This document shows, one piece after another, positions 5,581-61,580 of a stretch of DNA of 64,000 nucleotides. Under the pieces are notes generated by a model. The model was not told the origin of the DNA and made no database searches. It saw only the letters and a list, made by a program, of their open reading frames with translations. Made by a program: the position numbers and the translations under genes. This stretch comes from an uncultured Candidatus Saccharibacteria bacterium (GTDB taxonomy: Bacteria > Patescibacteriota > WWE3 > 2-01-FULL-39-13). How positions within the stretch are numbered: position 1 is the stretch's first letter; every line of letters begins with the position of its first letter. The DNA lies in the NCBI GenBank assembly GCA_965230915.1, contig OZ246395.1, positions 406,284-470,283 of the forward strand. The letters are read 5' to 3'.

Positions 5581-5883
5581 ATGCTCATGGAAATTCCCCA
5601 TAAAAACACAAAAATAAATGTTCACCTAGTTGGAGACGCCGAAATACAAAGGCTTAACAAGCAGCATATGGGCAAAGATTACCCTACCGACGTTTTGTCT
5701 TTTAACATAGATGAAAAGCTTCCTGATGGAGAATATTACTTGGGGGACATTATCGTAAACGTAGATGAGGCCGAGCGCCAGATGAGAGATTATGGCAATA
5801 CAGATGTAAGGCACGAAATTGCTCAATTAGTAGAACATGGAATGCTTCATTTAATGGGGATTCATCACGAGCACGACGATTAG
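5581..5883 (+). CDS. ybeY: rRNA maturation endoribonuclease YbeY (short form)
   Basis: It carries the H-x-x-x-H...H metal-binding motif HGMLHLMGIHHEH. It is 100 aa. Confidence 0.8.
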   Translation: MLMEIPHKNTKINVHLVGDAEIQRLNKQHMGKDYPTDVLSFNIDEKLPDGEYYLGDIIVNVDEAERQMRDYGNTDVRHEIAQLVEHGMLHLMGIHHEHDD

Positions 5884-10284: not shown

Positions 10285-10399
10285 TTAATTGTATTTTGCC
10301 TTCTTTATTGCATGAAGTACTGCGAAATAATTTTTAAATAAGCGCGTTTTAGTGAGACTTCTCTTATGCTATCATTCATCCAGAGATTTAATTCTGCCC

Positions 10400-11524: not shown

Positions 11525-11565
11525 TCTTTGCTTAGCAGTTTAATTTATGTACAATATTAGTAACC

Positions 11566-12141
11566 ATGCCCAATGCTTTTAGTGATGTAAACTTCATTCC
11601 CGATGAAGTCGTTTCAGACAGAAAACGCAATTCTCAAGTAAAGAGCCTTAATAAACTAGCCGTTGGTGCAATGATATTAGCATTGATAGTTGGCGGCGGA
11701 CTTTTTGGTTATAACCTTTATACAAAAAATAAAATCACAACTTTAAAAACTGATGTTACAAAGAAGCAATCTGAGATTCAGGAATTGAATGAATTTGCTA
11801 AAGATGGTTATAAACTTGGTCTTAGGTTATCTAGCGTAAAAACTATTCTAAGTGAAAGGCCTTATTACGGAAAAATTGTTGAAGAACTTTATAATCAAGT
11901 TCCAGAAGGTGTCGGTATAAAAGATATTCAGGTAGATGATGAAGGAAGTGTTATTTTGACCGGGATCGCTGTTCCAAATTATATTCCAATAGCTACTTTT
12001 CAAGATAATTTAAAAGCTTCTGATAGCCAGTATTTTACAAAAATAAGATTAAGATCAGCAGCTCTAGAAAAGACAACTGGAAGTGTATCTTTTACATTAG
12101 AATTCGTAATTGATTTAACAAAAGTCCATGAGCCTATCTGA
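11566..12141 (+). CDS. pilN: type IV pilus assembly protein PilN
   Basis: It has a single N-terminal TM helix, a periplasmic domain, and lies downstream of pilM. Confidence 0.7.
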   Translation: MPNAFSDVNFIPDEVVSDRKRNSQVKSLNKLAVGAMILALIVGGGLFGYNLYTKNKITTLKTDVTKKQSEIQELNEFAKDGYKLGLRLSSVKTILSERPYYGKIVEELYNQVPEGVGIKDIQVDDEGSVILTGIAVPNYIPIATFQDNLKASDSQYFTKIRLRSAALEKTTGSVSFTLEFVIDLTKVHEPI

Positions 12142-13081
12142 AACAGTTGAGGAAACAATTGAAAAACTAAAACCACATCACCAGGAAGCTCAACCTGCCC
12201 CTGCTCCGTCAGTTCAGGCTGAAGCTTTACAAACTAATGAAGCAAGTAAATCTTCGTTTAGTATGGATGATTTAAAGGATTACATTGTGATAATAGTCTG
12301 TACTGCAATATGTTTAGCTGCAGTATTTTTATTAATAATTCCACAATACGAACAAATTTCCACAGTTAGTTCAGAATACACTTCAGTTCAAACCGAGCTT
12401 GGTGAACTTACAAAACAAGGTGAATACTTACAGAGCCTAGTTGGATTAAAAGACGAACTTGAAAAGAAAATTGAGCTTGCTTATCAGGCTTTGCCAAGTA
12501 ACGAAGAGAAGGTTCCATATACACTCGACCAAATTGTTCAAATTGCGGATAAAAGCGGAGTTTCTGTTGATACATTAAGTTTGAGTGGAATAACTGACCC
12601 TGAACAAGGTTCGGCTGATAACTTAAGAACCGTTATGATTCAATTAAGCGTCACCGGTCCACACGATAGTATCCAAGCTTTTATTTATAGCCTAGAAAAG
12701 GCTCGAACGATTGTTGATGTTTCAAATTTCCAAATTTCAAATCAAGAAACAAGTGATACAACAACAACTGATAGCGGAGAAATTATAACTACAACAACGA
12801 CTCAAGAAGAAGCTACCATGTCTTTAAGAGCATATTTAAAGCCTGAGGCTGAATCTGAAAATGTAGATTTATCAGCATTAGCTAATTCACCAAATTACGA
12901 TAAAGTAATTGAGAAGCTAAACAGCATGGATTTTTATGAAACGAAGCCGACTGACATTGAATTTGGAAGACCTGATCCTTTCGGTGTGGGTGAATCTACT
13001 TCAAGTGCTCAAGAGGAAAATCAGACAGAAACCAATCAAACTGACAATGAGGACGACGATTCTAGCGGATTCAGTAATTAA
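12128..13081 (+). CDS. pilO: PilO-like pilus assembly protein with a T-rich low-complexity segment and an acidic C-terminus
   Basis: It has a TM helix (IVIIVCTAICLAAVFLLII) and sits in the position expected for the third gene of a pilMNO module. Confidence 0.55.
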   Translation: MSLSETVEETIEKLKPHHQEAQPAPAPSVQAEALQTNEASKSSFSMDDLKDYIVIIVCTAICLAAVFLLIIPQYEQISTVSSEYTSVQTELGELTKQGEYLQSLVGLKDELEKKIELAYQALPSNEEKVPYTLDQIVQIADKSGVSVDTLSLSGITDPEQGSADNLRTVMIQLSVTGPHDSIQAFIYSLEKARTIVDVSNFQISNQETSDTTTTDSGEIITTTTTQEEATMSLRAYLKPEAESENVDLSALANSPNYDKVIEKLNSMDFYETKPTDIEFGRPDPFGVGESTSSAQEENQTETNQTDNEDDDSSGFSN

Positions 13082-23598: not shown

Positions 23599-23612
23599 GC
23601 ATCGAATATATA

Positions 23613-23630
23613 CCCGAATATAACCCGAAG
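23613..23630 (-). promoter_or_regulatory. candidate LexA operator, a direct repeat TTCGGG-ttata-TTCGGG, 15 nt upstream of the dinB start
   Basis: It shares sequence and spacing with the repeat inside the lexA promoter. Confidence 0.35.
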
Positions 23631-34370: not shown

Positions 34371-34598
34371 TTCTTTTAATTGAATTAATTTCTACGAAAC
34401 TTTTTGGAGAAGCTTCCGCAGGCTAAGAAAGTTAGTATTACAGATCCAAGGTTGTGCACTCTCCGAGTACCCCTCGTTCCATGTGCTCACTTTATTCGCA
34501 CGGAACTCGGTGCCGAGGATTATTAGCTTCGATAAAAAGGCTTCGTCAAAAATTAAATTTAACATAGAAAAGTGTTTGGGTAAAGTTCGGGATTATGC

Positions 34599-35441
34599 CT
34601 ACGGCATTGGTACCGGTTCGGTTTCTATGATTGGGTTACTTGGCTCTTCAGCTCCTGTTGGAACAGTCTGAGCTTCGCCCGCACTAGTCTGCAATTCATT
34701 GTCTATATTTGTGAAATCTATTGATCTTATATGCTCGTTCAAACTCATTGTTTCAGGCGTTGATGTCGCCTCCCTTTGCGTCATTTCCATTATATATGGG
34801 TCAATGTCAATTGGGCTTGTCTCTACTACTGGTTGCTCTTGTGGCTGTTCAACTACTGGTTCGGGTTGTTCAGGAGTTTCAGCCGGTTTCATCATTGTTA
34901 AGTAATAATATCCTCCACCTGCTAATACTAATAAGGCAATTCCGGCAATAATGGCTATCATCGCAAATTTATTTCTAGATGCTGGAGCGGTTACTTCATT
35001 ATATGCGTTTGTGCCTGTGGATGGTGGAGCTTGCATTGTTGAACCCGTCTGTGGGCCAGATGTTACTGATGAAAAAGAAAATTTTTTATGCTTATCTTGA
35101 TTTTCTTCAACTCCTCCTACTAATGTTTGATTGGCTAAATTACCAGCTGGTGTCGGATCTGGACTGCTGAATGGATTAGACGGAATACTAGCTGGCTCGG
35201 CCATTGGTTTTACAGGTGCTGTAGATATACTCTGAGCTGGCATTGGACTCGCAGGCATAGAAGTCATAGGGTCCGAAGAAACAGGCTCTGCCGGCATAGC
35301 GGGCTTTGCTTCCGGAAATCCTTGTACGGCTGGTTGTGCTGGAGGTGTTGGGGTTCCAGTTGGCACATTGTTTACGGGAATTGAGCCGAATCCTGATATG
35401 CCTGAATTATTTTGATTGTTAGGTGTCTGTGGAGTATCCAT
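34599..35441 (-). CDS. Pro/Thr/Ser-rich low-complexity membrane protein with a single TM helix
   Basis: It has a central TM helix (FAMIAIIAGIALLVLAGGG) with P-rich flanks. Confidence 0.45.
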   Translation of the reverse strand: MDTPQTPNNQNNSGISGFGSIPVNNVPTGTPTPPAQPAVQGFPEAKPAMPAEPVSSDPMTSMPASPMPAQSISTAPVKPMAEPASIPSNPFSSPDPTPAGNLANQTLVGGVEENQDKHKKFSFSSVTSGPQTGSTMQAPPSTGTNAYNEVTAPASRNKFAMIAIIAGIALLVLAGGGYYYLTMMKPAETPEQPEPVVEQPQEQPVVETSPIDIDPYIMEMTQREATSTPETMSLNEHIRSIDFTNIDNELQTSAGEAQTVPTGAEEPSNPIIETEPVPMP

Positions 35442-35442
35442 T

Positions 35443-36054
35443 TTATTGTAGTTGTGTAACTAATTTTGATAATGTCGCTTTTGTTGCTAGTAATTGAGCT
35501 GTTATGGCTGCAGATTTTGCTCTTAATAATGGTGCTGATGTTGCAAGTTCAGTATCCATTGATCCGCTAAATGCATCTACTGTTGCATCATAATCGTTTA
35601 TTAAAGTTGCAATTTTAACCATTTCTTGGGAGGCACTATTTAAGTCAGCTTCAGTAATTGCTGGTTGCATTCCGCTATTAACACCTGAACCTTGGTTTAC
35701 AATATCGATATTTTGTAAGTAATTTATATATGCTTCTAAAGTTTTATGGTGTCTCGCGGAAACCATAATGGCAGCTAATTTATAGCTTGATGCATTGGGC
35801 TGAACAGATGGATCAGATTGCATTTGTAAGCCAGCTGTATATTTTTCCCTTTGGCTTTGAAGTTTGGTTTGCTCATCTGTTTTTAACCCTGCTAATAATT
35901 GGGTTCTGTCTACCATAAGTGCTGGTTCTGGTGTGGTAGTAGTTGGGGGTGTTGTCTCAGGAGCGAATCCATCAAAATCTTGTGCAAATGCGACGGTAGA
36001 TAATGATAAGAAAACTGCTAACGAAGTTGTTACAATAAAAAGTGATTTGGACAT
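35443..36054 (-). CDS. secreted hypothetical protein with a signal peptide
   Basis: The N-terminus MSKSLFIVTTSLAVFLSLSTVAFAQD is a signal peptide. Confidence 0.45.
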   Translation of the reverse strand: MSKSLFIVTTSLAVFLSLSTVAFAQDFDGFAPETTPPTTTTPEPALMVDRTQLLAGLKTDEQTKLQSQREKYTAGLQMQSDPSVQPNASSYKLAAIMVSARHHKTLEAYINYLQNIDIVNQGSGVNSGMQPAITEADLNSASQEMVKIATLINDYDATVDAFSGSMDTELATSAPLLRAKSAAITAQLLATKATLSKLVTQLQ

Positions 36055-38153: not shown

Positions 38154-38624
38154 TTATGGTCGATTGACTAATTCACTTATCACGATACCACATGCTGTTG
38201 CTACGTTTAAAGATGAATGGGTCCCTATCCTAGGTATTTCAACGATTTCTGACGCGATTGACAAACCTTCTGGAGTTATTCCGTCGACTTCGTTTCCAAA
38301 AAGATAAATAGCATTTTTAGGTGGAGTCCAATCATATAGATTTTTAACGTTATCTTTATTGTTTTCGATAGCTACAATTGGAAGCTTGTATTTCTTTAAG
38401 TCCTCAACTTTTTCAGCGGTTTCAATTTCGACTTTTGGCATCGCTCCAAGTGAAGTCTTCTTTAACTTTCTATGAATCATATCTGGCTCATTTTTATCGA
38501 TTCCAGAATATCCAATAAGAATAACCTTTTTTATTCCAAAGAATTCGGCAGTACGGATGATCGCGCCGATATTGTATAAGCTTCTTATATTTTCTAGGGC
38601 AATATAAATTTCTGGTTTATTCAT
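38154..38624 (-). CDS. SpoU-class (TrmH/TrmL-like) RNA 2'-O-methyltransferase
   Basis: The SPOUT pattern is LYNIGAIIRTAEFFG...LFGNEVDGIT...SLNVATACGIVISE. Confidence 0.85.
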   Translation of the reverse strand: MNKPEIYIALENIRSLYNIGAIIRTAEFFGIKKVILIGYSGIDKNEPDMIHRKLKKTSLGAMPKVEIETAEKVEDLKKYKLPIVAIENNKDNVKNLYDWTPPKNAIYLFGNEVDGITPEGLSIASEIVEIPRIGTHSSLNVATACGIVISELVNRP

Positions 38625-38698
38625 TGTGAAAATGATGAAATCAGATAGAATTATAACGTATTTCGTAATGTGAAGGTGTTAGTGAAAGGATTCCGATT

Positions 38699-38974
38699 AT
38701 GTCTGATGTCATGATTGAAAGTCCACCTTTGGTGGGCTGGACAGTTGCGACTGTGGCTCAAGTCGAAGCACCATCCGAGCAGTCGGAGAAATTTGCACCC
38801 GTAAGGGAGCTTGAGTGCCCGGAATGCTTTGACGATGTGACGATTCCCGCGAAGACTCAGTCCAATGAAATCCTTCAATGCCAAGGATGTGGGACAGATC
38901 TCGAGATCCGAAAGATCGAAGGGGAATGGCGATTAGAGGTTGCTCCCGAAGAGGAGGAAGACTGGGGTGAATAG
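38699..38974 (+). CDS. LysW-like zinc-ribbon amino-group-carrier protein with an N-terminal extension of about 35 aa
   Basis: The C-terminal 55 aa read ECPECFDDVTIPAKTQSNEILQCQGCGTDLEIRKIEGEWRLEVAPEEEEDWGE. This is a C4 ribbon plus the EDWGE C-terminal tail characteristic of LysW/ArgW. The segment is clearly G+C-richer than its flanks. Confidence 0.6.
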   Translation: MSDVMIESPPLVGWTVATVAQVEAPSEQSEKFAPVRELECPECFDDVTIPAKTQSNEILQCQGCGTDLEIRKIEGEWRLEVAPEEEEDWGE

Positions 38975-39008
38975 CCTTAGTCAGTTGTCGTCCATGTGAT
39001 TGTTTGTA

Positions 39009-39073
39009 CAGAGAACACAGGTCTCAACCATCTGGTTGAAAACAGCTTTTTAAGCTGATCTGTGTTCTCTCTG
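39009..39073 (+). promoter_or_regulatory. long inverted repeat (acagagaacacag ... ctgtgttctctctg) flanking an internal hairpin caacca-tc-tggttg followed by aaaacagcttttt, between the LysW-like gene and lexA
   Basis: The repeats were read directly. This is a possible terminator/insulator or an insertion boundary. Confidence 0.35.
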
Positions 39074-39134: not shown

Positions 39135-39163
39135 TTGACCGTTCGGGTCATGTTCGGTACATT
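39135..39163 (+). promoter_or_regulatory. candidate lexA promoter, TTGACC-17-TACATT, with an embedded direct repeat TTCGGG-tcatg-TTCGG (candidate autoregulatory LexA operator)
   Basis: The hexamers and the repeat were read directly. The ATG at 39173 lies 10 nt after the -10 hexamer, so the transcript is possibly leaderless. Confidence 0.3.
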
Positions 39164-39172
39164 AGATCTACT

Positions 39173-39793
39173 ATGCCTGTATATCTTTACCCACGTCAAA
39201 GAGAAATCTATGACTTTATAAAACAATATATTCAAAAAGTAGGAACTTCCCCTACTCTAAAACAGATTGCGGAAGCAATGAACTTAAGTTCGTTGGCAAC
39301 TGTCTCAGAACACTTATATGCTCTCGAGAAAAAGGGACTTATCGAAAGAGTTTTTGGCGAGGCTAGAGGTATACGAATTCTGGAAGAATCAAATGCAATT
39401 TACGATCCAGTAGAAAGCATCGAAGTTCCTGTTTTAGGTTACATTGCTGCCGGAAAGCCAATTGAGATTAATGAAGATCATACTGAAACAATCAGTATTC
39501 CCTCAGATATGGTTAGTAGAACAAAAAGAACTTTTGTTTTACAGGTTGTTGGAGATTCAATGATTGAAGATTATATCGTGGATGGCGATCAGGTTATTGT
39601 TGAGCAAGTCAGTGATGTTGCTGAAGGAGAAATTGTTGTAGCCGTTGTAGATTCAGATTACGCGACCTTAAAGAGATTTTATAAAGAGAACGGAAGAATA
39701 AGATTACAGCCATCAAATTCACAAATGGAACCTATATACGCAACGAATGTTGAAATTAAGGGTCGGGTGATCGGTGTAATACGAAAGTATTAA
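39173..39793 (+). CDS. lexA: LexA repressor
   Basis: It has a winged-HTH N-terminus (PRQREIYDFIKQYIQKVGTSPTLKQIAEAM), an AG cleavage-site region (GYIAAGKPI) and an S24 peptidase domain with Ser (GDSM) and Lys (LKR). The track start at 39062 (GTG) is taken to be read-through. Confidence 0.85.
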   Translation: MPVYLYPRQREIYDFIKQYIQKVGTSPTLKQIAEAMNLSSLATVSEHLYALEKKGLIERVFGEARGIRILEESNAIYDPVESIEVPVLGYIAAGKPIEINEDHTETISIPSDMVSRTKRTFVLQVVGDSMIEDYIVDGDQVIVEQVSDVAEGEIVVAVVDSDYATLKRFYKENGRIRLQPSNSQMEPIYATNVEIKGRVIGVIRKY

Positions 39794-47836: not shown

Positions 47837-48586
47837 ATGGTTTTAAACATAAATAAGCCTCTTGGAATCACAAGCTACGACGTTATTCGAAGACTAAAAA
47901 AGCAATACCCAGGAGAAAGAATTGGTCACGCAGGAACGCTAGACCCTTTGGCTGAAGGTATTTTAATTTGCCTTGTAGGCAAACAAGATACCAAGCGCCA
48001 GTCAGAATTTATGGGAGTTGTTAAGGAGTATGAGTATGAAATGGTATTTGGATTCGACACCGATACTTATGATGTTTTAGGTCTTGTTAATGCTTCAAGA
48101 GAATATACTCCAAATGACATTGAAGCAAAAATAAAAAATAACCTGCAAACTAGAAAATTAAAACAGAAACTTCCGCCATTTAGCGCATCTAAAGTTAACG
48201 GAAAACCTTTGTACCGTTGGTATCTTGATGGACAAATTGATCGAGTGGAGATTCCCGAAAATAATATTGAAGTTTTGGAACACGAGTTGATGTCCACCAA
48301 TGTAGTTTCAAAATCGGATTTGCACGTAAAAGTTAATGAACTTGTTAACTTGGTTAATTCACGTTTTAGAAAAGATCAGGTTTTAAAGTCGTGGGAAGAA
48401 ACTTTATCAAATACTAATCAGACAGAATTTTTGACGGCCAGACTTCGCGCGAAAGTTTCAAAAGGAACTTATATTCGTGGATTAGCTAATGATTTAGGAA
48501 ATAAACTTGAAACAGGTGCGTGCACCTTAACTATAAAGCGCACGCAAGTTGGAGATTTTAAAATCTCTGATTCAGTTTCAATTTAA
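47837..48586 (+). CDS. truB: tRNA pseudouridine(55) synthase
   Basis: It has the catalytic Asp motif HAGTLDPLAEG. Confidence 0.9.
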   Translation: MVLNINKPLGITSYDVIRRLKKQYPGERIGHAGTLDPLAEGILICLVGKQDTKRQSEFMGVVKEYEYEMVFGFDTDTYDVLGLVNASREYTPNDIEAKIKNNLQTRKLKQKLPPFSASKVNGKPLYRWYLDGQIDRVEIPENNIEVLEHELMSTNVVSKSDLHVKVNELVNLVNSRFRKDQVLKSWEETLSNTNQTEFLTARLRAKVSKGTYIRGLANDLGNKLETGACTLTIKRTQVGDFKISDSVSI

Positions 48587-51417
48587 TTATTCGAGCTTAA
48601 CAAGTTTGTAAGCTTATAGAAGTTAATAACTTCTGGAGATGTTTTAACTTTTGTTGCAACGCCATTCGAATTTAAATCATTTGAAATAATAAAGTTATTA
48701 GAAGCCTTATCTAAAAGGTAAATTGCAGTTTTATTATTTGTAATTGAATTCAAGCTAATTTCATTGTCGCTTGTTTTAATATATGCGGCATTTGTATTGT
48801 CAGCTAATACGTTAGATCTGAAAATATTTCCGTTTGAATTTCCATAAACATAAATTCCGTGTCGGCTACTTCGCAGAACTTCATTATTAAGAACATAATT
48901 TTTGCCGCTATCTTCGTTTAGACGAATGCCATTTACGCTATTATTTACTTTGTTTCCTTCGATTAGATTTCCAGTAGAAGCCCAAATTGCGATTCCATCA
49001 TTATTATTTTCTATGATATTGTTGCGCACGATATTATCGTTTGAAGCCATATGCAACATTATTCCATGCAGCTTATTATCGCGTGAAATATTATTAACGA
49101 TTATATTGTTGTAGCACCTTTTTGAAAAAATAATTCCATGTATGCCATTTCTTTCAGCAATATTATTTTCAACAATAAAGTTATTCGAATCGTCATGTGG
49201 ATCTAGACCGTATACAACGTTGTCGTTAAATTTATTGTTTTTCCAGACGATTCCGGTAGCCCCATAAGTATATGCTCCAAAATAATTATGGTGATAATTA
49301 TTTCCGATTGATTCTCCTGTCGAAACATAGTGAGGATATGTTCTGGATGGGATTCTCCATGAAACTCCGTATGTTCCTCCTGCAGTTGTTAAATCTTTTT
49401 CTTTATAACCGAGCCAAGCCATTTCTGAGTTATAAATATCAAGTCTAGAATTTGCCTTCATTAAAACATAGCTTCGGCCATCATTATATTCTTCGTCGAA
49501 ATTATTTTTGTCGGTATCCCAGGAAGTTACTTTTGTATCCCGAATTGTTAAACGGCCATTATATCCAATTAAAGTCGCAAATCCTGAAGTGGTACTTTTC
49601 ATTTTTAGCCATGTTACATCTGGCGAAACGATATCTAGTGATGTTCCGCTTTCCATATATATATTTGCAGATAAAACCCATATGCCATCAGATTCTTTGG
49701 TTAAATGTGTATATCCGTCTTTCGCAGCAATGTCAGCAATTGTGAATTTGTGTCCGCGACCGGAAAGATAAATTGTATTAGTTGCCGCATCATATCTTTG
49801 TCCTCTCGCAGTTGGAGTTTTTCTTTGGTAATTGAACATTGTTAAAGGTTCATATTTAACCGGTTTAAGTGGAATAGTCAAAATATCTCCAGGGTTTACA
49901 CGGTCCCAGTTTGGCAAAATTGGGAAATTGAATTTCACAATCTCGGAAACAGGAATATTATATTCAGCAGCAATCTGTGAAAGGCTTTCGCCACCTTTTA
50001 CTTCGCGGCGAATTAAGCTTGGAGATGTATCAAGTTTATTTAATTCGTCTAAATTTGCAGAAATATCTTTAGTGGTAAGAGCTGAATCTTCTTTTAGATT
50101 TTGAGCAATTGTCATTCGAGCAGCATTAGCTTTCACTTCCATATCATGAAAGTGAAGATAAGGAATTGATGCAACAGCAATTAAGACATAAGCAGTATAA
50201 ATGTATGCTCCAGCTGTATTAATAATATTGGTTTTGCTCATTCTAGAAATATCCCAGCGTGTTAACCAACCTTGTGTTCTGATAGTTATTAAAGCAAAAA
50301 TACGTATTACGCCTGACCAGTATGAATAAATAATATAAGTAGGAATATGAATTATATGCATCGGATATCTTTTTAAATGTGGATATACTTTTATAGTACG
50401 GGTAATTAACCACCAAGCCAAAAGTACCGCAGCTGAAATAAAGTGTCCGTATGCTAATGAAATTGCAAAGAATGCAAATCCGTAAACCATTGTAAAAGGA
50501 GCAATAAATCTATCTACCAAAAAGAATAATAGATGTGGGTGTTTGCGAATCCATTTGCTACTAAGTGCTTTAGTGTCTGCTCTCCAGCTATTTCGTGCCC
50601 AACGAATTTTTTGTTTTGCGAATGTTTGAAAATCTTCTGTTCCTGGTGTTAATACAACTGCATTTTTCTGATAAACAGTTTTCCATCCGTCTGCTTGGAC
50701 TAGATTTGTTAAGCATTTATCATCACCGCTAATTGATTTCTTCCCCCAGAAATGTTCGTTTGTAAGTTGGTCGAGTAATGGTTTTACAGCTGAAGTTCTG
50801 TAAAATGCAGTTCTTCCCGATAAGCATGAAAGTGCATTTCCCATTCCAGATAAATATGGCATTTCGTCGAAGTAACGAAGGTCTAAAAGTATATCGAATA
50901 AAATTCGAGTTAAAGTATTTGGATTAGTAACGTTTTGCCTTGTTGCAACTCCTCCGACTTTTTCGTCAGCAAATGGAGCAAGTGCATTTTTCATAACCCC
51001 TTCTGTCCATTCTGTATCACTATCGATAAGTGCAACAATTTCATATTTTGCAAGTTTCATTCCTGTTGCTAAAGCTTCTCGTTTTCCGGGGATTTTTGTA
51101 ATTTCTAAAACTCCGTTTTTATATTTTTTCTGAAAGTCTTTAAAAACTTTTATCGAAGATTCGTCTGTATAGTCGATAACAGCAATAATTTCTGAAGGTT
51201 TTTCTTTGGCCCAAGAATCTAGCGCTTTTCTAAATCCAATTGGATCTTCATTATAAACTGGAGTAATAACCGAAACTTTTGCATTATATTCTGTTGTTTT
51301 TACTTTGTAGTAAAGGTGGCCACAGATTTTTTTGTATCCCCAGACGCTCCAGCGCCATAATCCAATCAAACCTATTGGAAGATACTCAACATAAGGAATT
51401 TCAGAGAACGATATCAT
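48583..51417 (-). CDS. fusion protein: processive GT2 polysaccharide synthase, TM helices, LysM domain and a right-handed beta-helix with a DPHD motif (mannuronan C5-epimerase-like)
   Basis: The GT2 part has VITPVYNE, IDSDTEW (DxD) and QKIRWARN (Q-x-x-R-W). Several TM helices follow. The LysM domain is GGESLSQIAAEYNIPVSEIVKF...GDILTIP. The PbH1/CASH repeats are NNIxxNxxHGI..., with GLDPHDDSNN. Confidence 0.8.
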   Translation of the reverse strand: MISFSEIPYVEYLPIGLIGLWRWSVWGYKKICGHLYYKVKTTEYNAKVSVITPVYNEDPIGFRKALDSWAKEKPSEIIAVIDYTDESSIKVFKDFQKKYKNGVLEITKIPGKREALATGMKLAKYEIVALIDSDTEWTEGVMKNALAPFADEKVGGVATRQNVTNPNTLTRILFDILLDLRYFDEMPYLSGMGNALSCLSGRTAFYRTSAVKPLLDQLTNEHFWGKKSISGDDKCLTNLVQADGWKTVYQKNAVVLTPGTEDFQTFAKQKIRWARNSWRADTKALSSKWIRKHPHLLFFLVDRFIAPFTMVYGFAFFAISLAYGHFISAAVLLAWWLITRTIKVYPHLKRYPMHIIHIPTYIIYSYWSGVIRIFALITIRTQGWLTRWDISRMSKTNIINTAGAYIYTAYVLIAVASIPYLHFHDMEVKANAARMTIAQNLKEDSALTTKDISANLDELNKLDTSPSLIRREVKGGESLSQIAAEYNIPVSEIVKFNFPILPNWDRVNPGDILTIPLKPVKYEPLTMFNYQRKTPTARGQRYDAATNTIYLSGRGHKFTIADIAAKDGYTHLTKESDGIWVLSANIYMESGTSLDIVSPDVTWLKMKSTTSGFATLIGYNGRLTIRDTKVTSWDTDKNNFDEEYNDGRSYVLMKANSRLDIYNSEMAWLGYKEKDLTTAGGTYGVSWRIPSRTYPHYVSTGESIGNNYHHNYFGAYTYGATGIVWKNNKFNDNVVYGLDPHDDSNNFIVENNIAERNGIHGIIFSKRCYNNIIVNNISRDNKLHGIMLHMASNDNIVRNNIIENNNDGIAIWASTGNLIEGNKVNNSVNGIRLNEDSGKNYVLNNEVLRSSRHGIYVYGNSNGNIFRSNVLADNTNAAYIKTSDNEISLNSITNNKTAIYLLDKASNNFIISNDLNSNGVATKVKTSPEVINFYKLTNLLSSNN

Positions 51418-52312
51418 CTGCTTTCTCCTCTACATTTACGGGCGTGCTTTGTTGAATAAGTCTGTTGTTAACTTCGACTGTAGCTCTTAAATGAATAGGA
51501 TCGTGTCCTTGGCTTTCGGCCCAGGTTAAAAATCCTTGCGTATCTTTTGGTAAGCAAACTCCTCCGAATGGACCCATGTCTTTTGTTCCATATTTCGGAT
51601 TCCAAAGTGCCTCTGCACTCTTTGTTACCAAATCAAAAACTTTTTCAGTATCTAGTTTTAGGGATTTTCCAATTTCTCTCATTTCATTAAAGAAAGAAAT
51701 TTTTGCAGCGTTCAATAAATTATGAACATATTTTTGGAATTCTGCTTCTTCTATTGTTAATCGATGAACTTCAGGAGCAAAGTCTTTATAAACTTTTTGC
51801 AAGATTTCAAAAGATCTGTCATCGTAAGCTCCGACAACTACAATCCAAGGGTTATCAAAGTCTTCAACTGCTTTATATGCTCGTAAATATTCCGGATTCA
51901 TACAAAGTCCAAAATCTTCGCCGACTTTTTTGCCTGAAACTTCTTCAGCTTTTTTTGAAAGTTCAACTGTTGTTCCTGGTGGAAGTGTGCTTCGTGTAAC
52001 TATAACTTGATAGTTTTTGTTATTTTTTATGACAACTCCAAGTTCTGCGACCGCACTTTGTAAATATTGAAGATCTACACTTTTATTTACAGTCGGAGTT
52101 GGGACCGCTAAAAAGTTTACGATCTCCTCACCTTTTTTGTATTTTGTGGATTTTAATTCTTCAGCGGAAATTGCCTTATAGCCTTCTGCTTTAATTTGCT
52201 CAATTCTAATCGGATTAACATCAACGAATGTGACGTCAAATCCACGTTTGAGGAATCCTCTGCCTGTAGCATAACCAACTACTCCTGAACCGATAACATT
52301 TATTTTGATCAT
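51401..52312 (-). CDS. UDP-glucose/GDP-mannose 6-dehydrogenase family protein, C-terminally truncated (303 aa)
   Basis: It has GSGVVGYATG (Rossmann fold), VPTPT, NPEYLR and the catalytic Cys in FGGVCLPKD. It stops about 45 aa after the Cys, so it has no nucleotide-sugar-binding C-terminal domain. It overlaps the GT2 start by 17 nt. Confidence 0.75.
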   Translation of the reverse strand: MIKINVIGSGVVGYATGRGFLKRGFDVTFVDVNPIRIEQIKAEGYKAISAEELKSTKYKKGEEIVNFLAVPTPTVNKSVDLQYLQSAVAELGVVIKNNKNYQVIVTRSTLPPGTTVELSKKAEEVSGKKVGEDFGLCMNPEYLRAYKAVEDFDNPWIVVVGAYDDRSFEILQKVYKDFAPEVHRLTIEEAEFQKYVHNLLNAAKISFFNEMREIGKSLKLDTEKVFDLVTKSAEALWNPKYGTKDMGPFGGVCLPKDTQGFLTWAESQGHDPIHLRATVEVNNRLIQQSTPVNVEEKADDIVL

Positions 52313-52363
52313 ATATTTGAAATTGATTTAGGCAGTGAAATCTTTTGGAGTGTATCACCCGAA

Positions 52364-53758
52364 TTATTTTTCAGTCAATAATTTTATGTCGAATTTCTTA
52401 TTTGTTGTTGAAGTTCCTTCGGTTGGTTGTTCATATACGATATAAAAATTATTATCATAATTATTTTTCGCGGCTAAATGAGGATAGTAAATATTTTCTC
52501 CTAATAAAATTTTGTATGTAAACTTATTTTCGAGCGAGTCGAACTTTGAAAAATATCCTTTAGAATCGATCGGGTCTTCTCTCGGGAATTCACTCTTATT
52601 TTGGTTTTCTAGCCAAACAATACCGACTTCATCATTTTTATTTGTTCCGAGTACAGGAAAGAACTGATAGGCATCACTTTCTAATACCGTTTGAGGCTTT
52701 GTCCAATTGCGGTTTTCTAAGATAGAAAAATATAATTCGGCTTTATCATCAACATCACTTCTCCAAGTCGCAATGATTTTGTCATTGTATTTTACGGCGG
52801 ACACATGACGTGAGTCATCAAACCCATTACTTATGTTTTTCCAATCGCTCCATGTTTCACCTTTATCATAAGAAATTGCGTGCCAGATTTGTTGGTCATT
52901 GCTTTCACGGCTTGAATAGAAAAATAAATTTAAATTATTATTAGAATCCAATAATAAATATGGTCGGGATTGAGTGTTATTCGGACTTGTATTAATGTTT
53001 TTCCATTGTGACCAAGTTTTACCACCATCATTTGATTTTATAAATTTAGCTTGCTGGTTTCTATTTTCCGAATCCTTCCCTTCCCAAACTATGTAGAGGT
53101 TGTCGCCTTCTGTTAGTATCTGCGGGTGCTCCTGCCAGTAATCTTCATCATCAGTGTATCCTTCAACTAAACTTGGAATAGTTGGTTTCGACCATGATTT
53201 TCCGTTATCAATGGAGCGAATATACTTAACCTGTCGACCATTATTGCTGCCTTCAGTAAGGCCATACCAAACTACATGAATTGTGTCGTTTTGATCTACC
53301 GCAATCGATGGAACGCGTTGGGTTGCCCCATCTGAATCAGTTACGACTTTATTGGATATTAATTTACCGTTTTTTGATTTAGATATATATATTTCGAAGT
53401 CTTCTTTAGTTTTTGCTCTGTAAGCTGTAAAGATTTCGCCGTTACTATTTATCGCTACTTTATCCTGACCCGTATATCCTAAGCCTTTATTATCATCAGT
53501 TGATCCTACTTTTACGATTTTGCCTGATGGGCTTGATTCCTTAATATAATCGTTCGGGCCGGTTGTTAATATTTGTTCTACTGTTTGTGAAATATCCGAA
53601 AATTCGACGGGGGAATCAAAGTCTTTATTAGAAAAAGTCCGGTACATAAGCGCCGAAACTACTATTATTGGAGCAAGAGCTACTGGTATATAAATGAAGC
53701 TCCACTTGAATTTGGGCATAACTTTAATAACTTTAGCCCGTAATCTAGGTGATTTCAA
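52364..53758 (-). CDS. BNR/Asp-box repeat protein (sialidase-like beta-propeller), N-terminally membrane-anchored
   Basis: It carries repeated S-x-D-x-G-x-T-W motifs: SIDNGKSWS, SNDGGKTWS and SYDKGETWS. Confidence 0.7.
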   Translation of the reverse strand: MKSPRLRAKVIKVMPKFKWSFIYIPVALAPIIVVSALMYRTFSNKDFDSPVEFSDISQTVEQILTTGPNDYIKESSPSGKIVKVGSTDDNKGLGYTGQDKVAINSNGEIFTAYRAKTKEDFEIYISKSKNGKLISNKVVTDSDGATQRVPSIAVDQNDTIHVVWYGLTEGSNNGRQVKYIRSIDNGKSWSKPTIPSLVEGYTDDEDYWQEHPQILTEGDNLYIVWEGKDSENRNQQAKFIKSNDGGKTWSQWKNINTSPNNTQSRPYLLLDSNNNLNLFFYSSRESNDQQIWHAISYDKGETWSDWKNISNGFDDSRHVSAVKYNDKIIATWRSDVDDKAELYFSILENRNWTKPQTVLESDAYQFFPVLGTNKNDEVGIVWLENQNKSEFPREDPIDSKGYFSKFDSLENKFTYKILLGENIYYPHLAAKNNYDNNFYIVYEQPTEGTSTTNKKFDIKLLTEK

Positions 53759-53885
53759 CGATTTTATTATATGAATTACCCTAAAATGGCAAAAAAGGCT
53801 GATTTGGCGGCTTTAAAAATTAGGCTTATGAATGCTATAATATTTCGGTACTTTTAAGTGGGTTCCCACATTTTTTCCGCTTCGC

Positions 53886-53962
53886 GGGCCAGTAGCTCAG
53901 TTGGTTAGAGCACCTGCCTTTTAAGCAGGGTGTCGAAGGTTCAAATCCTTCCTGGCTCACCA
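53886..53962 (+). tRNA. tRNA-Lys (anticodon TTT)
   Basis: A cloverleaf was folded by eye. The acceptor is GGGCCAG/CTGGCTC, the D-arm is GCTC/GAGC, the anticodon stem is CCTGC/GCAGG with loop CTTTTAA, and the T-arm is GAAGG-TTCAAAT-CCTTC. A CCA end is present. Confidence 0.85.
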
Positions 53963-53968
53963 TTTAAT

Positions 53969-56113
53969 CTAATTAACTTTGATAGTCTTAATCTCGGACT
54001 TATTCCCTGCTCTATCTTTTATATATACATCAAAGACATATTTCGAGCCGTTAATATCTGCCGGCAATGTGCAGGTAAAATTACCCTCATCCTCTAAGCC
54101 GCAAGATAAATTTGTGAATTTAATAGACTTGTCTGCATTATAAATATCAATATTTAAGGTACCCTTATCATTTGAAGACCCTTCGATATTTAAAGTTTTA
54201 GATGGACTAATTTTGATAGTAACTGCGTTTGTTATATTTTTAGAGTTTATTTTTGATATTGTAAATTCTGTTGGAGTTTTAGTATCGACAGTAAACTTAT
54301 ATATTTCAGATTTAACAGAAATATTAGTCGCATCAATAGAACTTATATACCATTCATATTTCCCGTCTTTTAAATTAGTAAATGTATAATTTGTTCGATC
54401 TTTATCTGTGCTGGCTATTCGGTTAAAAGTTTTATCTTTTCCAATTCGCTTAAGATGAATATCATACTTTACGGCTGCTGTAACCTTATTCCAAACTACA
54501 GTTACATCATCTGATTTGCTGTACCCATTATTTAAAGTTGGGTATTGTTTCTTCTCGCGGCCGCTACTATCTTCATAGGAATATTTTTTCTTAGTATTTG
54601 TTATTGCCGTTGCTCCTAAAGATGCAGCATCAGAATCTTCTAATCTTAAGAGATAACCATCATAATTATCATCAATATTGGGTTCTCTAGTATCCCCACC
54701 TAGATAATGGTTGAAGTCAGTTTCTTTTGAGAATGCGCCTGCTGCATATATGTATCCATTTTTTTCATTAAAATCTATTGATTGAACCAATGATCCGGCC
54801 TCTTCACTATAGTAAGAATGAACCCATCTGAAATTGCCATTTTCATCGAGAGCAAGAATATAACCAGCCCTGGCATCAGCATCGTATATTGCGTCAGATG
54901 GACCCGGGTCAAAATCCATAAACAGGTTATAATTGCTCCCCAGGTATACATTGCCGTCGCTTGTGACTGCCATGCTTTCCAAATTTTCTACATCATCAGT
55001 TCCGTATGTTACAGTCCATCTATATGTGCCGTCTGTAGAAAATTTACTAACATATACATCTGAATTAGCAGGTTCAGCAACCGTATGTATATCTTCGCTA
55101 TCTGTAGGATCAAAATCTATATAACCAGATCTAATGTATCCTCCACTATATACATTTCCTTTATTATCAAGCCTTACAAGTTGAGGAAGGTCATTCCCAG
55201 TACCCCCAAAAGTTTTGCTCCAGATAAAATTTCCATTGGAGTTATACTTAACCAAAAACCCATCCAGGCCGCCATTTGAAGTAACTGATGATGTACCTGG
55301 AGTTCCATCTAGATCTGCGCCATCAGAATACGAACCGACAGCATAAATGTATCCGTTCTTATCAATTGCTACGCCATAAACATAATCATTGTCTAGCCCA
55401 CCTAAAGTTCTTGTCCATTTATAATTGCCATCTTTATCGTATTTGGATATGAAACCTTCATAATTCTCTCCTGTAAGTAAATCTATACCTGATGTAGCAT
55501 CCATATCTATATCGATTCCACCAAAATCTCCGACAAGATAGATATTATCGCCATTCTGATCAACAGCTATGTCACTTGGTTCTACCACACCAGTGTCATA
55601 AGCTTTATACCAAAGCAAGGTGCCATTCTTATCATATTTAGCAAAAACAAGTGCTGCATCATCATTTGGTGTTACATTCGTTGTGCCTGAATTTGGATCA
55701 AGATCGAAAGTCCCATCAAAATAAAATGCTATATATATATTCTTATTTTTATCAACTGCTATGCGCGTAGAATTAGCATCCCCGTCGCCAATTATTCCTT
55801 TTGTCCAAATTTCATTGCCATTTTTATCAGTTTTACTAATAAAGACATTGTATCTGGATGTCACAGCAGTCAAATTATGAACTCCAGAACCCGGATCAAA
55901 ATCCGTTGTTCCTTTAAATCGTCCCATGGTCACAATATTTTCATCGGAATCGTGGGATATTCTTTCGAAAAAAGTTGTATCTGTTCCCGGATATGTTTTT
56001 GTAAAATTATATTTATGGTTGTCAGCGGCAAGTACCGGTTTAGTCATATAAAATATGGCGAGGATTAGAATAAATATTGCGGATAAAAATCTTTTGGCAG
56101 AAAGAAAAAGCAT
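53969..56113 (-). CDS. secreted SBBP-repeat (beta-propeller) protein with C-terminal Ig/Fn3-like domains
   Basis: It has a signal peptide and repeated D.NGN..W...GG..D..VA.D..GNIY..G and DFDPG.G units. Confidence 0.65.
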   Translation of the reverse strand: MLFLSAKRFLSAIFILILAIFYMTKPVLAADNHKYNFTKTYPGTDTTFFERISHDSDENIVTMGRFKGTTDFDPGSGVHNLTAVTSRYNVFISKTDKNGNEIWTKGIIGDGDANSTRIAVDKNKNIYIAFYFDGTFDLDPNSGTTNVTPNDDAALVFAKYDKNGTLLWYKAYDTGVVEPSDIAVDQNGDNIYLVGDFGGIDIDMDATSGIDLLTGENYEGFISKYDKDGNYKWTRTLGGLDNDYVYGVAIDKNGYIYAVGSYSDGADLDGTPGTSSVTSNGGLDGFLVKYNSNGNFIWSKTFGGTGNDLPQLVRLDNKGNVYSGGYIRSGYIDFDPTDSEDIHTVAEPANSDVYVSKFSTDGTYRWTVTYGTDDVENLESMAVTSDGNVYLGSNYNLFMDFDPGPSDAIYDADARAGYILALDENGNFRWVHSYYSEEAGSLVQSIDFNEKNGYIYAAGAFSKETDFNHYLGGDTREPNIDDNYDGYLLRLEDSDAASLGATAITNTKKKYSYEDSSGREKKQYPTLNNGYSKSDDVTVVWNKVTAAVKYDIHLKRIGKDKTFNRIASTDKDRTNYTFTNLKDGKYEWYISSIDATNISVKSEIYKFTVDTKTPTEFTISKINSKNITNAVTIKISPSKTLNIEGSSNDKGTLNIDIYNADKSIKFTNLSCGLEDEGNFTCTLPADINGSKYVFDVYIKDRAGNKSEIKTIKVN

Positions 56114-56217
56114 TAATAAAATTGTAACAATTGAAATATTTAAGTCTATATAGTGAATTATGATAATCGATCTAGAATTTTAGATCTTGCCATTTAAAAT
56201 AGTTTATACAAATCAAC

Positions 56218-56886
56218 CTATTTATTTGTTTTGAAAAGTATCGTTATATTTTCACCGTAAACTTCTGAGGTAGAATCACTCATGGAATCAACTTTTTTAG
56301 CTGGTTCATCGAAATTTTTCCCACTGGAAGTATTAAAATTGGTCTTCACTGATTTAATTTCAAAGGAGTTACCTTCAGCCGGTTGATCAAAGGTATCGAT
56401 CAGCTCTATATGTTTTTCCCCTTTGTTTAGAGTGCCACACTTTACCTTTGTATCCCTACCCTCAGGTCTGTCATATGCAGTATGAGTGAACTTAACATCA
56501 ACAGTAACTTCTACTGCCGTTTTTTCTTCTATGTTTTCAACTAGGATAAAGACTAAATTTTTATTTGGTGGATCTGCTCGTTGAAAATCATTAATTAAAT
56601 TACGGACATTATCTTTTGTGGCCAAAATGGGATATTTAGAAATAAACGCATCATCAATTTTGCTTGCTAAAATAAATTTAACTTTAATGTAAGGAAGTAC
56701 TTCACTATGAATTGTATGCAGAAGAGTTTTATAAGTAAGATATACGAAGACTAAGGTGAAAACAGCATTTATCACACCATCGTATCTAGAAAATTCATCT
56801 ATACTTCTCCACGCAAAGTAGGCTAGTGATAGTATAGCTAAACCTAATATTATTTCTGGGAGGTTGCTTTTAAAGTTCAATTTCAT
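56218..56886 (-). CDS. hypothetical membrane protein (222 aa)
   Basis: It has two N-terminal TM helices and overlaps the upstream ORF by 17 nt. Confidence 0.35.
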   Translation of the reverse strand: MKLNFKSNLPEIILGLAILSLAYFAWRSIDEFSRYDGVINAVFTLVFVYLTYKTLLHTIHSEVLPYIKVKFILASKIDDAFISKYPILATKDNVRNLINDFQRADPPNKNLVFILVENIEEKTAVEVTVDVKFTHTAYDRPEGRDTKVKCGTLNKGEKHIELIDTFDQPAEGNSFEIKSVKTNFNTSSGKNFDEPAKKVDSMSDSTSEVYGENITILFKTNK

Positions 56887-57190
56887 CCCTCCCGCTAAAA
56901 TTGTCCGTCTTACCTTTCAATTCATCTACGGCACTTTTTATTCTCGATTTTAGAAGCTTGATGAAATCCTCTGCGCTTTGTTCATCAGAAAATTGAAAGC
57001 TTGTATTTAGGCTTGTAACGGGGATTACGCTTCTCGCCCGTCCGTTATAATATATAGTTTCTGGCGCTATCGATATAGAAGGCGCTCCGAATCTTTTCAC
57101 ACGATCAATTTCGTCTTCCGAATACTCTGTTATCTCGACATTAACTAGATAGCTGCCAGCTTTTAAGTTTTTTTCTATTACAACCTTCAT
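56870..57190 (-). CDS. hypothetical protein (106 aa)
   Basis: ORF only. It is co-oriented and overlaps the next gene. Confidence 0.3.
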   Translation of the reverse strand: MKVVIEKNLKAGSYLVNVEITEYSEDEIDRVKRFGAPSISIAPETIYYNGRARSVIPVTSLNTSFQFSDEQSAEDFIKLLKSRIKSAVDELKGKTDNFSGRDEIEL

Positions 57191-57255
57191 AATTTACATA
57201 TATATTATGCATTTTAATCGCGTTACTACAAGCCCTTCATGATTTTAGGAAATTT

Positions 57256-58521
57256 TTATTTCACCACCACACTCACAGCCGAAGGCATCTTAGACTCGCC
57301 TAACTCGCTGTCCTCATCATTTTGATACACAGCAGATACTTTATAAGAATATGATCCTGCAGGTTTTTGAACTGTTGCGTCAGTATTTGTTGAGATCAAA
57401 ACATATTTATAATCTGATGACGATGTCTTTTCATAAATTTTATAGCCAATTATTTCGGCGTCGTCTTCGCCGGGAGCTGCTTTCCACGAAAGTTTTATTC
57501 CACCTGCAACGGCTGACCATTTAAGATTTGTTGGCTTTTTGTAATCTCCAACTTTTAAACTTGCGAATCTTTCATCAAATGCATCATCTGTAATTACAAT
57601 TTGTTCAGGTTCAGTAACTTCTGATTCTGTAGTGTTTTCAGTTTCAGAAACTTCACCAGATGTACCTGCTCCATTTCCGGTACATGTTCCATTATGACAA
57701 ACTTGTAATCCATAAATTGTTACTTGTGCAAAATCGCATTCACCTGCATCAGGTCCATCGGTAAGTTTTGTGCAATTATCGCCCGATTGGTTGTATGCTC
57801 CAGCTTTAAAATAAGCGCCGCTAAAGGTTTTATTTTTAACATATGGAAGGTCTGCTCCATTGTATACGTAATTGATTTTTCCATTTGATACTTTAAATCC
57901 TATCGAGAATTTGTGCCCTAAAGCATAACTATTTGTTACTAAATATCCATGGGTCGTATCGCCATCGGTGATCCAAATGCTATTTAGATTGCCATCACCT
58001 GTGTTACCTCCATATTTATTTGATTCGATTCTAAAGACAGTTACATCGTCATCCGAATCATGAATTTGCCCGGCAACTACAACCGGTTTATCGCCAATTG
58101 GTAAGATGTCTACAGATTGTTCGATAATCATTGAGTGATTTCCGGAAGTCGAAGACCACGATGCGTTATCTTTTCCATCATTTTTCATTTCTCGAAGTTC
58201 CGACCTCGGATTATTAGAACCTGAGGTCGTTTCGCCATCTGTTCGAACCTTAAAAACTACCCCATTTGCAGCTTCATTTAGATAAAACCACTCGTCTGCA
58301 TAAGTTTTTAGGCTTGGTGATGAGCTTATTTTAATCTCTTTGCCGTCATCGATCGGTAAAGTTAGTTTCCAATTTTTGGATCCGATAAGGTCCATCGGGT
58401 ATGTTATGCTGGCGTCAGATTCCTTCGGCATTTTTGAAAATGCAATGAATGCAATAATCGATAGTATTACAGCTCCAATGACTAAAAAAATGTTCATTAG
58501 CTGACTTGTCGCAATTTTCAT
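57256..58521 (-). CDS. PL7 family polysaccharide (alginate/polyuronate) lyase with an N-terminal membrane anchor and a C-terminal Fn3-like domain
   Basis: All three PL7 signature blocks are present in order: RSELREM, QIH (AGQIHDSDDD) and YFKAGAYNQ. Confidence 0.8.
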   Translation of the reverse strand: MKIATSQLMNIFLVIGAVILSIIAFIAFSKMPKESDASITYPMDLIGSKNWKLTLPIDDGKEIKISSSPSLKTYADEWFYLNEAANGVVFKVRTDGETTSGSNNPRSELREMKNDGKDNASWSSTSGNHSMIIEQSVDILPIGDKPVVVAGQIHDSDDDVTVFRIESNKYGGNTGDGNLNSIWITDGDTTHGYLVTNSYALGHKFSIGFKVSNGKINYVYNGADLPYVKNKTFSGAYFKAGAYNQSGDNCTKLTDGPDAGECDFAQVTIYGLQVCHNGTCTGNGAGTSGEVSETENTTESEVTEPEQIVITDDAFDERFASLKVGDYKKPTNLKWSAVAGGIKLSWKAAPGEDDAEIIGYKIYEKTSSSDYKYVLISTNTDATVQKPAGSYSYKVSAVYQNDEDSELGESKMPSAVSVVVK

Positions 58522-61178: not shown

Positions 61179-61580
61179 TAATTAATTCTAGTTCTAACGG
61201 ACTAAATTGACAAATAAAATTGCCGGTGCTAGGATCTTTCTCGCTAAACCTGCGTTTTAAATTCCTCCCAAAAATAAAGCATATGGTTCTTGAAAACTTA
61301 ATAAATCTGTCTGCCAATATGTGTGAATACACGTTTGCCTTACAGGCTTTGCTGTTGGCACAATTTTTGGCCCACTCAATGCTTTTTTCGATGAAATCTA
61401 CTAATTCGGGTAAATTTCACGGAACTATGATGGTTGCCTCCCCCGTAGCTTTATTTTTCTTCGGTTCATGCTTAAATATGGTAGTTGTTTCGTCATTTTT
61501 TTTGGGATTATCCTTTATGATTTTGGGAAGAATCGTGAGATATGGATATTTGCGCCGAAATCGCTAATATATAGTCATAT

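Follow-up and report, generated by a model that had tools for sequence, protein, structure and literature searches.

The locus

The window analysed here is the whole 64-kb stretch of DNA (64,000 nucleotides of contig OZ246395.1), part of the 945-kb genome of an uncultured Candidatus Saccharibacteria bacterium. It contains a small gene whose product resembles LysW, the amino-group carrier protein of lysine and arginine biosynthesis. The initial annotation of this DNA had given the gene as 38651–39060, directly upstream of lexA. The reading frame in fact runs from 38699 to 38974 on the forward strand (stop codon included) and encodes 91 residues; position 38651 marks both where a −10 box ends and one edge of an antisense open reading frame (ORF), and 39060 lies inside a hairpin 3′ of the gene. 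The adjacency to lexA holds: the lexA ATG (39173) is 198 bp 3′ of the LysW-like gene, on the same strand. lexA itself (39173–39793, forward) encodes 206 residues and matches TIGR00498 with 215.9 bits against a cut-off of 110.95. The left neighbour is a divergent gene for a SpoU-family RNA 2′-O-methyltransferase (38154–38624, reverse; PF00588, 98.2 bits), found in all close relatives with or without a LysW-like gene. We call the interval between the SpoU gene and lexA the slot.

A consensus scan places a sigma-70-like promoter (TTGTGA, 16 nt, TAGAAT) at 38624–38651 on the forward strand, and a Shine-Dalgarno-like GAAAGGA can be read from the sequence at 38684–38690, 8 nt 5′ of the ATG; the counterpart gene in one relative (L003) has AAGGAG 7 nt 5′ of its ATG. 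The −10 box and the 5′ untranslated region (5′UTR) are kept in L003/L006, L169, and L172, and are present in two copies in L177; within the window, the promoter/5′UTR element occurs once (nhmmer). On the 3′ side of the gene, folding predicts a branched, Y-shaped hairpin (39010–39070, forward) with a folding energy of −30.8 kcal/mol (z = −5.5, and down to −7.0 in relatives). It consists of a 13–14-bp outer stem around two small hairpins, one of which has a conserved CAACC...GGTTG stem. L003 and L005 share this architecture, and double compensatory changes affect 4 of the 13 pairs of the outer stem and 7 of the 20 predicted pairs overall. Inspection of the sequences by eye locates the hairpin in L169, L172, and L177 as well, and a T-run follows it in most relatives. 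No Rfam family matches 39010–39070. As judged from its sequence and predicted fold, the hairpin is probably an intrinsic terminator that insulates lexA. L007, which has no LysW-like gene, carries a long hairpin (5770–5850) at the equivalent place 5′ of its lexA promoter.

Fold and family of the LysW-like protein

The translated ORF ends in ...LEVAPEEEEDWGE, followed by the stop codon. A C4 zinc-ribbon globular domain (residues 38–81; 38810–38941, forward) contains C40, C43, C61, and C64, all of which are invariant in a 57-sequence LysW alignment, and is followed by the acidic C-terminal tail APEEEEDWGE (38942–38971, forward). The tail terminates in Glu91, whose position we take to be that of the attachment site, the terminal Glu, in canonical LysW. 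The ribbon, the APEE linker, and EDWGE are canonical in sequence. Residues 38–84 match the Pfam family PF21344 (Zn_ribbon_LysW) with 47.4 bits against a cut-off of 27, and residues 38–91 align over their whole length, up to and including the C-terminus, with the LysW chains 3wwl, 5k2m, and 3vpb (E-values 6e-7 to 3e-6), which come from Thermus thermophilus, Thermococcus kodakarensis, and Sulfolobus tokodaii. In the AlphaFold2 model, the ribbon is confident (block-mean predicted local distance difference test, pLDDT, of 76–88 over residues 31–80), and when this model is searched with Foldseek, the six best PDB matches are all LysW, with target-normalised template modelling scores of 0.73–0.86 and a probability of 1.00. 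The C4 ribbon and EDWGE ending recognised in the initial annotation are thus borne out by translation, by the Pfam match, and by alignment to solved LysW structures, and at the level of domain and fold the ORF is shown to be a genuine member of the LysW family. Of the profile models for LysW, PF21344 alone is matched above its cut-off; TIGR01206 (lysW) scores 34.1 bits against 53.2 and the NCBIfam model NF041070 (LysW/ArgW) 51.4 bits against 75, both with the full model length covered. The 91-residue protein has a net charge of −16 and no signal peptide.

We also considered that the G+C-rich (guanine plus cytosine) segment might be a non-coding RNA. Rfam, even at permissive E-values, returned chance-level matches only, and this reading was rejected because the coding frame is the sole long sense frame in all three homologues. 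A 77-residue antisense ORF (38651–38884, reverse) overlaps the gene and is not conserved in L005, where the longest antisense open stretch is 44 codons; it is probably no more than a consequence of the high G+C content.

Ahead of the ribbon lies an N-terminal extension (residues 1–37; 38699–38809, forward) that is variable and probably disordered. The initial annotation noted about 35 residues foreign to canonical LysW, and the comparison agrees: 39 residues precede the first Cys here against a median of nine in 254 LysW-like proteins (39, 25, and 20 among the relatives). AlphaFold2 gives block-mean pLDDT values of 51–55 over the N-terminal 30 residues and no secondary structure before residue 33; the ratio of nonsynonymous to synonymous substitution rates (dN/dS) in the extension is 0.57–0.81, and HMMER, run exhaustively against 1.84 billion representatives, detected no homologues of it. 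Because it is poorly conserved, nearly neutral, and predicted to be disordered, the extension is unlikely to carry a new function or, on these sequence and model data, to be a clue to one.

Relatives and conservation of the tail

The same exhaustive search, run with the whole protein, retrieved four proteins at E ≤ 1e-10, the query included. The closest, P0002 (61% identity) and P0003 (55%), match residues 36–91 only, and the genes of both lie directly 5′ of lexA on the same strand, as does a copy in genome bin L006; the homologues and neighbours that the initial annotation proposed to look for in related genomes therefore exist. A scan of JGI metagenomes returned canonical LysW only, at no more than 62% identity.

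Among the lineages with a LysW-like gene, LexA is 90–91% identical and synonymous sites are saturated (proportion of synonymous differences 0.61–0.74); the LysW-like proteins are only 50–57% identical. Nonsynonymous divergence (dN) is 0.34–0.44 for the whole protein and 0.25–0.33 for the ribbon and tail, compared with 0.06 for LexA, so that the protein diverges about 4–7 times as much as LexA. The dN/dS ratio is nevertheless 0.17–0.20 for the whole protein and about 0.08 for the ribbon and tail. As estimated from three sequences only, with dS saturated, these ratios show the zinc ribbon and tail to be under purifying selection.

The tail varies within the clade. EDWGE is the C-terminus of 233 of the 254 LysW-like proteins retrieved, and EDYGE and EDFGE occur among them only in two lexA-linked relatives; a further variant (L169) ends in GDGFGE. 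An aromatic residue, Gly, Glu, and the stop codon (aromatic residue W, Y, F, and F) are kept in all four intact slot variants, which are 36–57% identical and differ by insertions and deletions. Since this ending is kept while the remainder diverges, we suggest that some factor continues to recognise the terminus. The relaxation of a near-invariant Trp would point to fewer or different partners than those of the canonical five-enzyme pathway.

A variable slot between the SpoU gene and lexA

The clade was sampled by a LexA search and the contigs were then read at the slot; relatives that share the slot have LexA proteins 87–91% identical. LysW-like genes occupy it in at least four diverged lineages. 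L169/L170 (LexA 89%) have a 95-residue version with a 13-residue insertion and the GDGFGE ending. In L177 (LexA 89%), a LysW-like remnant is spread over two frames and has no acidic tail, and a second promoter precedes an unrelated 60-residue Cys-containing ORF. L172–174 (LexA 91%) have a 57-residue relative of that other ORF in place of the LysW-like gene; from 60 nt 5′ of lexA onwards, these contigs are 97% identical in nucleotide sequence to L005, which does have the LysW-like carrier. In L171 (LexA 87%), the slot is empty and the SpoU gene abuts the lexA promoter. The LysW-like gene is absent from the position upstream of lexA in relatives with LexA at or below 87% identity, where, L171 aside, the order is uvrB, response regulator, lexA (L175, 83%), uvrB, lexA (L178–180, 81%, and L008, 76%), or uvrB, membrane protein, lexA (L007, 77%). 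Upstream of lexA in L007 and L008, the lexA promoter alone is conserved, and we rejected the idea that a remnant of the gene persists in such distant relatives.

Occupied slots have the promoter/5′UTR and the 3′ branched hairpin in common. The alternative slot ORF (L172, 4647–5068; L177, 1–783) encodes 57–60 residues, and lies behind the same promoter/5′UTR and before a similar hairpin. Its product is basic at the N-terminus, acidic and rich in Pro at the C-terminus, and contains a C-x4/5-C-x-C motif; of the two promoter copies in L177, one drives the frameshifted LysW-like remnant. The variability of the slot between strains identifies the LysW-like gene as accessory, exchangeable cargo rather than a fixed neighbour of lexA.

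Base composition and origin

The initial annotation described, by eye, a G+C-rich islet and took it to suggest acquisition from a different genomic background. Calculation confirms the islet: the G+C content of the ORF is 0.518 against a window mean of 0.359, the richest 276-bp segment of the 64 kb (0.533; mean 0.359, standard deviation 0.036) starts at 38721, and the 300-bp bin 38701–39000 has the highest G+C of all bins. When synonymous codons were redrawn according to the codon usage of 37 genes of the window (5000 simulations), the expected G+C at third codon positions (GC3) was 0.274 ± 0.043; the observed GC3 is 0.50 (z = 5.2), a value that none of the simulations reached. With host codon usage, the same protein would have a G+C of 0.44; about half of the excess is therefore due to amino acid composition and about half to codon choice. 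The flanking lexA and SpoU genes are host-like in G+C and codon usage. GC3 is raised in relatives also (z = 3.3 in L003 and 2.1 in L005), and the LysW-like gene of L169/L170 has a G+C of 0.50 against 0.39 for its locus.

The closest LysW proteins from outside the clade (at most 62% identity) lie on contigs of 54–71% G+C, mostly beside LysX or in canonical lysine clusters, which fits a G+C-rich donor. Horizontal acquisition of the LysW-like gene from a G+C-richer lineage is supported by these data on composition and kinship and by the absence of the gene from the more distant relatives. What does not hold is a recent insertion into a single genome, because at least four diverged lineages with saturated synonymous sites share the occupancy of the slot. 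Two other sources were rejected. A phage or defence origin finds no match in PHROGs or PADLOC and only a single distant one (45% identity) in IMG/VR; for an integron cassette, the hairpin on inspection lacks attC-like RYYYAAC/GTTRRRY cores and the window contains no integrase.

A gene with foreign codon usage and a patchy distribution, frameshifted in L177 and replaced in L172, might simply be non-functional foreign DNA in a permissive transcribed slot, heading for loss. Against this, the frame is open in four lineages despite saturated synonymous divergence, dN/dS in the ribbon and tail is well below 1, and all four Cys residues and the terminal motif are kept. We rate inert foreign DNA as distinctly improbable.

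Partner enzymes

The initial annotation stated that no LysX, LysZ, LysY, LysJ, or LysK partner is present in the window, and both similarity and domain searches support this. With queries from a canonical cluster (L087) for these five proteins and homocitrate synthase, tblastn of the window gave best E-values of 0.04–9; an ATP-grasp domain is absent from all window ORFs of at least 120 residues, and the window yielded no RimK-like gene. Nor were pathway genes seen in 20.7 kb of the 144-kb contig of a relative, or LysX/ArgX, LysZ, LysY, LysJ, or LysK in the loci of the relatives. Within 64 kb of a 945-kb genome, the LysW-like gene is an orphan.

Among canonical LysW loci from metagenomes, LysX is present in 71 of 80 and LexA in none of the 80. 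About 10% of canonical LysW loci have no adjacent LysX; the unlinked cases include an archaeal-looking locus (L096) and one with only an amino-acid kinase nearby (L106). Because some canonical LysW genes are thus unlinked from LysX, absence from 64 kb is no proof of orphan status. The gene could then be the ordinary LysW/ArgW of a complete lysine or arginine carrier pathway whose enzymes are encoded elsewhere in the 945 kb, and the canonical ribbon, APEE linker, and EDWGE are what one would expect of it. However, Patescibacteria characteristically lack amino acid synthesis pathways, according to a recent review (PMC11665869); a complete LysW pathway in the remainder of the genome is thereby less likely, though still possible. 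The gene is moreover replaced, frameshifted, or missing in very close relatives and has foreign codon usage, variation of the aromatic tail residue is confined to this clade, and the stretches surveyed hold no pathway genes. We consider an ordinary pathway carrier improbable. Our search of the literature on LysW in the candidate phyla radiation (CPR) and on ATP-grasp enzymes in Saccharibacteria found nothing relevant.

lexA, its candidate operator, and the adjacency

The lexA promoter (39135–39163, forward; TTGACC, 17 nt, TACATT) is nearly invariant in all relatives and contains a direct repeat, TTCGGGTcatgTTCGGTA (39142–39159, forward), which is a putative LexA operator. A Y-family polymerase gene has the same layout at 23611–23629 (reverse), where TTGACT is followed by TTCGGGTTATATTCGGGTA and then TATATT. 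The candidate operator (39142–39160 at lexA) can be written TTCGGGT-N4-TTCGG(G)TA, a direct repeat with an 11-bp period placed between the −35 and −10 boxes. GTTC-N7-GTTC is the direct-repeat SOS box of alphaproteobacteria, which the candidate operator resembles. Weaker copies lie at 34575–34593 (intergenic, 5′ of uvrA) and at 61405–61423. Only 9 nt separate the −10 box of lexA from its ATG. For the polymerase, the mechanically assigned ORF start (23676) lies 5′ of its own promoter and operator, and a more likely start is the in-frame ATG at 23595, which follows the −10 box TATATT by 6 nt and would imply a leaderless or near-leaderless mRNA.

The position directly 5′ of lexA in four lineages, in a window dense in recR, recG, mutL, mutS, uvrABC, and the Y-family polymerase, raises the question of whether the LysW-like protein is an SOS-related small protein coupled to lexA, such as a modulator of RecA or LexA or a damage-induced factor, after the pattern of the small lexA-adjacent genes of Gram-positive bacteria. 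Its own promoter is without the direct-repeat operator of lexA and the polymerase gene (the motif is absent from 38600–38700 even at two to three mismatches), and the terminator-like hairpin stands between the two genes. Close relatives keep lexA and its promoter while the slot is empty or otherwise filled, 77 further LexA loci, all from other phyla, include none with a LysW-like neighbour, and these small genomes in any case keep the order of genes around lexA. Since a hairpin separates the two genes and the lexA promoter is unchanged where the slot is empty or differently filled, the adjacency to lexA looks positional rather than regulatory as far as sequence can tell, and we regard SOS coupling as very improbable.

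Other genes of the window

Read from the slot, the order is SpoU methyltransferase (reverse), LysW-like gene, lexA, DedA/VTT, TP_methylase, histidine phosphatase, enolase, and PPDK. Repair genes are unusually dense in the 36 kb at 1900–38150 of this ~0.95-Mb genome (recR, dnaX, a gene for an MGMT DNA-binding-domain protein, recG, mutL, the Y-family polymerase gene, mutS, uvrC, uvrA, and uvrB), and lexA comes next. A second G+C-rich patch (about 0.49) lies at 35080–35460 in the ORFs 34599–35441 and 35443–36054. Neither ORF matches a Pfam family, and the product of 35443–36054 begins like a signal peptide and contains a segment rich in Thr and Pro; this pair of unassigned ORFs is kept between uvrA and uvrB in L169, L171, and L172. 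The type IV pilus assembly genes pilM, pilN, and pilO are found at 10352–13081. A surface or polysaccharide cluster (48583–58521) includes a 944-residue glycosyltransferase–LysM–beta-helix fusion, a UDP-glucose dehydrogenase, a BNR-repeat protein, and an alginate-lyase-like protein.

Public taxonomic labels of the LexA relatives conflict. Genome bins L006–L008, with LexA 76–90% identical to that of the window, are labelled Saccharibacteria, whereas the LexA proteins P0283, P0287, P0293, and P0300 (77–79% identical; from Rifle and Crystal Geyser genomes) carry the label candidate division WWE3 in NCBI and UniRef. On the strength of these labels, we assign the lineage no more narrowly than to CPR/Patescibacteria.

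A proposal for the function

Our preferred explanation, which we hold tentatively and would place a little short of probable, is that the gene encodes a LysW-family carrier-like protein, horizontally acquired and carried as dispensable cargo of a variable slot, that probably works through its tail. The LysW carrier gene would have been gained from a G+C-richer lineage and would now form a self-contained unit, with its own promoter, ribosome-binding site, and terminator hairpin, in the SpoU–lexA slot of a narrow clade of ultra-small CPR/Patescibacteria. The protein would act via its flexible acidic tail ending in a free Glu; by homology, an ATP-grasp partner of the LysX, ArgX, or RimK type may bind it and load an amino compound onto the γ-carboxyl of Glu91. 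Such a partner would be non-canonical or reduced and encoded elsewhere. The function would be dispensable and outside the core lysine or arginine pathway, and the neighbourhood of lexA would be a permissive recombination slot with no functional link. The different use of an acidic-tail carrier that the initial annotation hinted at is possible on this analysis.

Several points weigh against our proposal. The scores below cut-off for TIGR01206 and NF041070 and the small, saturated sample behind the selection estimate have been given above. GC3 is high despite saturated synonymous sites, which is a poor fit to one ancient acquisition and subsequent neutral decay toward host composition; repeated exchange via flanking homology, or selection on composition, may lie behind its persistence. 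The loading of the tail is suggested purely by homology, and the roughly 7% of the genome surveyed contains no partner. A role independent of any ligase is possible for so acidic a zinc-ribbon protein.

On this last alternative, the protein would be a binding partner or a mimic (of nucleic acid or of a host LysW) serving an interaction between episymbiont and host or with phage, and its LysW ancestry would tell of its origin only. The charge of −16 in 91 residues, a fast-turnover slot that also holds unrelated small ORFs, a divergence several times that of LexA, the lack of a partner within the window, and the relaxation of the tail from W to Y or F would all be at home in such an explanation. 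Yet it is difficult to see why all intact variants should keep the exact aromatic-Gly-Glu-stop ending if no enzyme recognised the terminus, there is no signal peptide, and neither PADLOC nor PHROGs gives a match. We consider a ligase-independent protein unlikely.

Returning to the acquired carrier, a more specific and in our view doubtful version is that a biosynthesis-poor CPR episymbiont captured LysW from a G+C-rich organism, possibly of its host lineage, and keeps it under selection, as interchangeable cargo, for a use other than lysine or arginine synthesis. The captured protein could be a tail-tagged scaffold or decoy that mimics or intercepts host intermediates, or the substrate of a single stand-alone ligase, and it is possible that its gene is one of several exchangeable small-protein cargo genes that share a conserved promoter and terminator in a recombination-prone slot near lexA.

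If true, a conserved yet dispensable copy of LysW, with the tail motif kept but its Trp relaxed, in bacteria held to make no amino acids could point to a minimal or new use of the carrier tail, or to pieces of the pathway retained in such genomes. In a phylum that has been little studied, the locus moreover brings to light a slot whose small genes vary between strains, together with a candidate LexA operator. Some Patescibacteria are now grown in co-culture and genetically manipulated, and for this reason both the slot and the candidate operator are open to direct testing.

Comparison with known systems

To our knowledge, LysW-type carriers are known only within multi-enzyme pathways, those of lysine and arginine synthesis and of some Streptomyces metabolites. 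The protein described here resembles the LysW/ArgW of Thermus thermophilus, Sulfolobus (Sulfurisphaera) tokodaii, and Thermococcus kodakarensis in its C4 ribbon, APEE-rich linker, EDWGE, and fold. It differs from these proteins (3wwl, 3vpb, and 5k2m) in its disordered N-terminal extension of 37–39 residues. It differs from canonical LysW in having no LysX neighbour, in belonging to a CPR genome expected to be without the pathway, and in that its sister variants swap the near-invariant Trp for Tyr or Phe.

Streptomyces secondary metabolism (pathways of the non-proteinogenic amino acid DADH) uses LysW-like carriers in which the tail chemistry is kept, a precedent for employing a LysW homologue beyond lysine and arginine biosynthesis. 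Those carriers sit in large clusters with homologues of LysX, LysZ, LysY, and LysJ, none of which is in the window. RimK, an ATP-grasp ligase of the LysX family, glutamylates the acidic C-terminus of ribosomal protein S6, a substrate encoded apart from any pathway; the LysW-like protein is, however, unrelated to S6, and the window has no RimK-like gene to go with it. Small genes beside lexA are familiar from Gram-positive bacteria, where YneA, SosA, ChiZ, and DivS are encoded divergently from lexA and share its operator. In contrast, the LysW-like gene is co-directional with lexA and has an operator-free promoter of its own, with a hairpin between the two genes.

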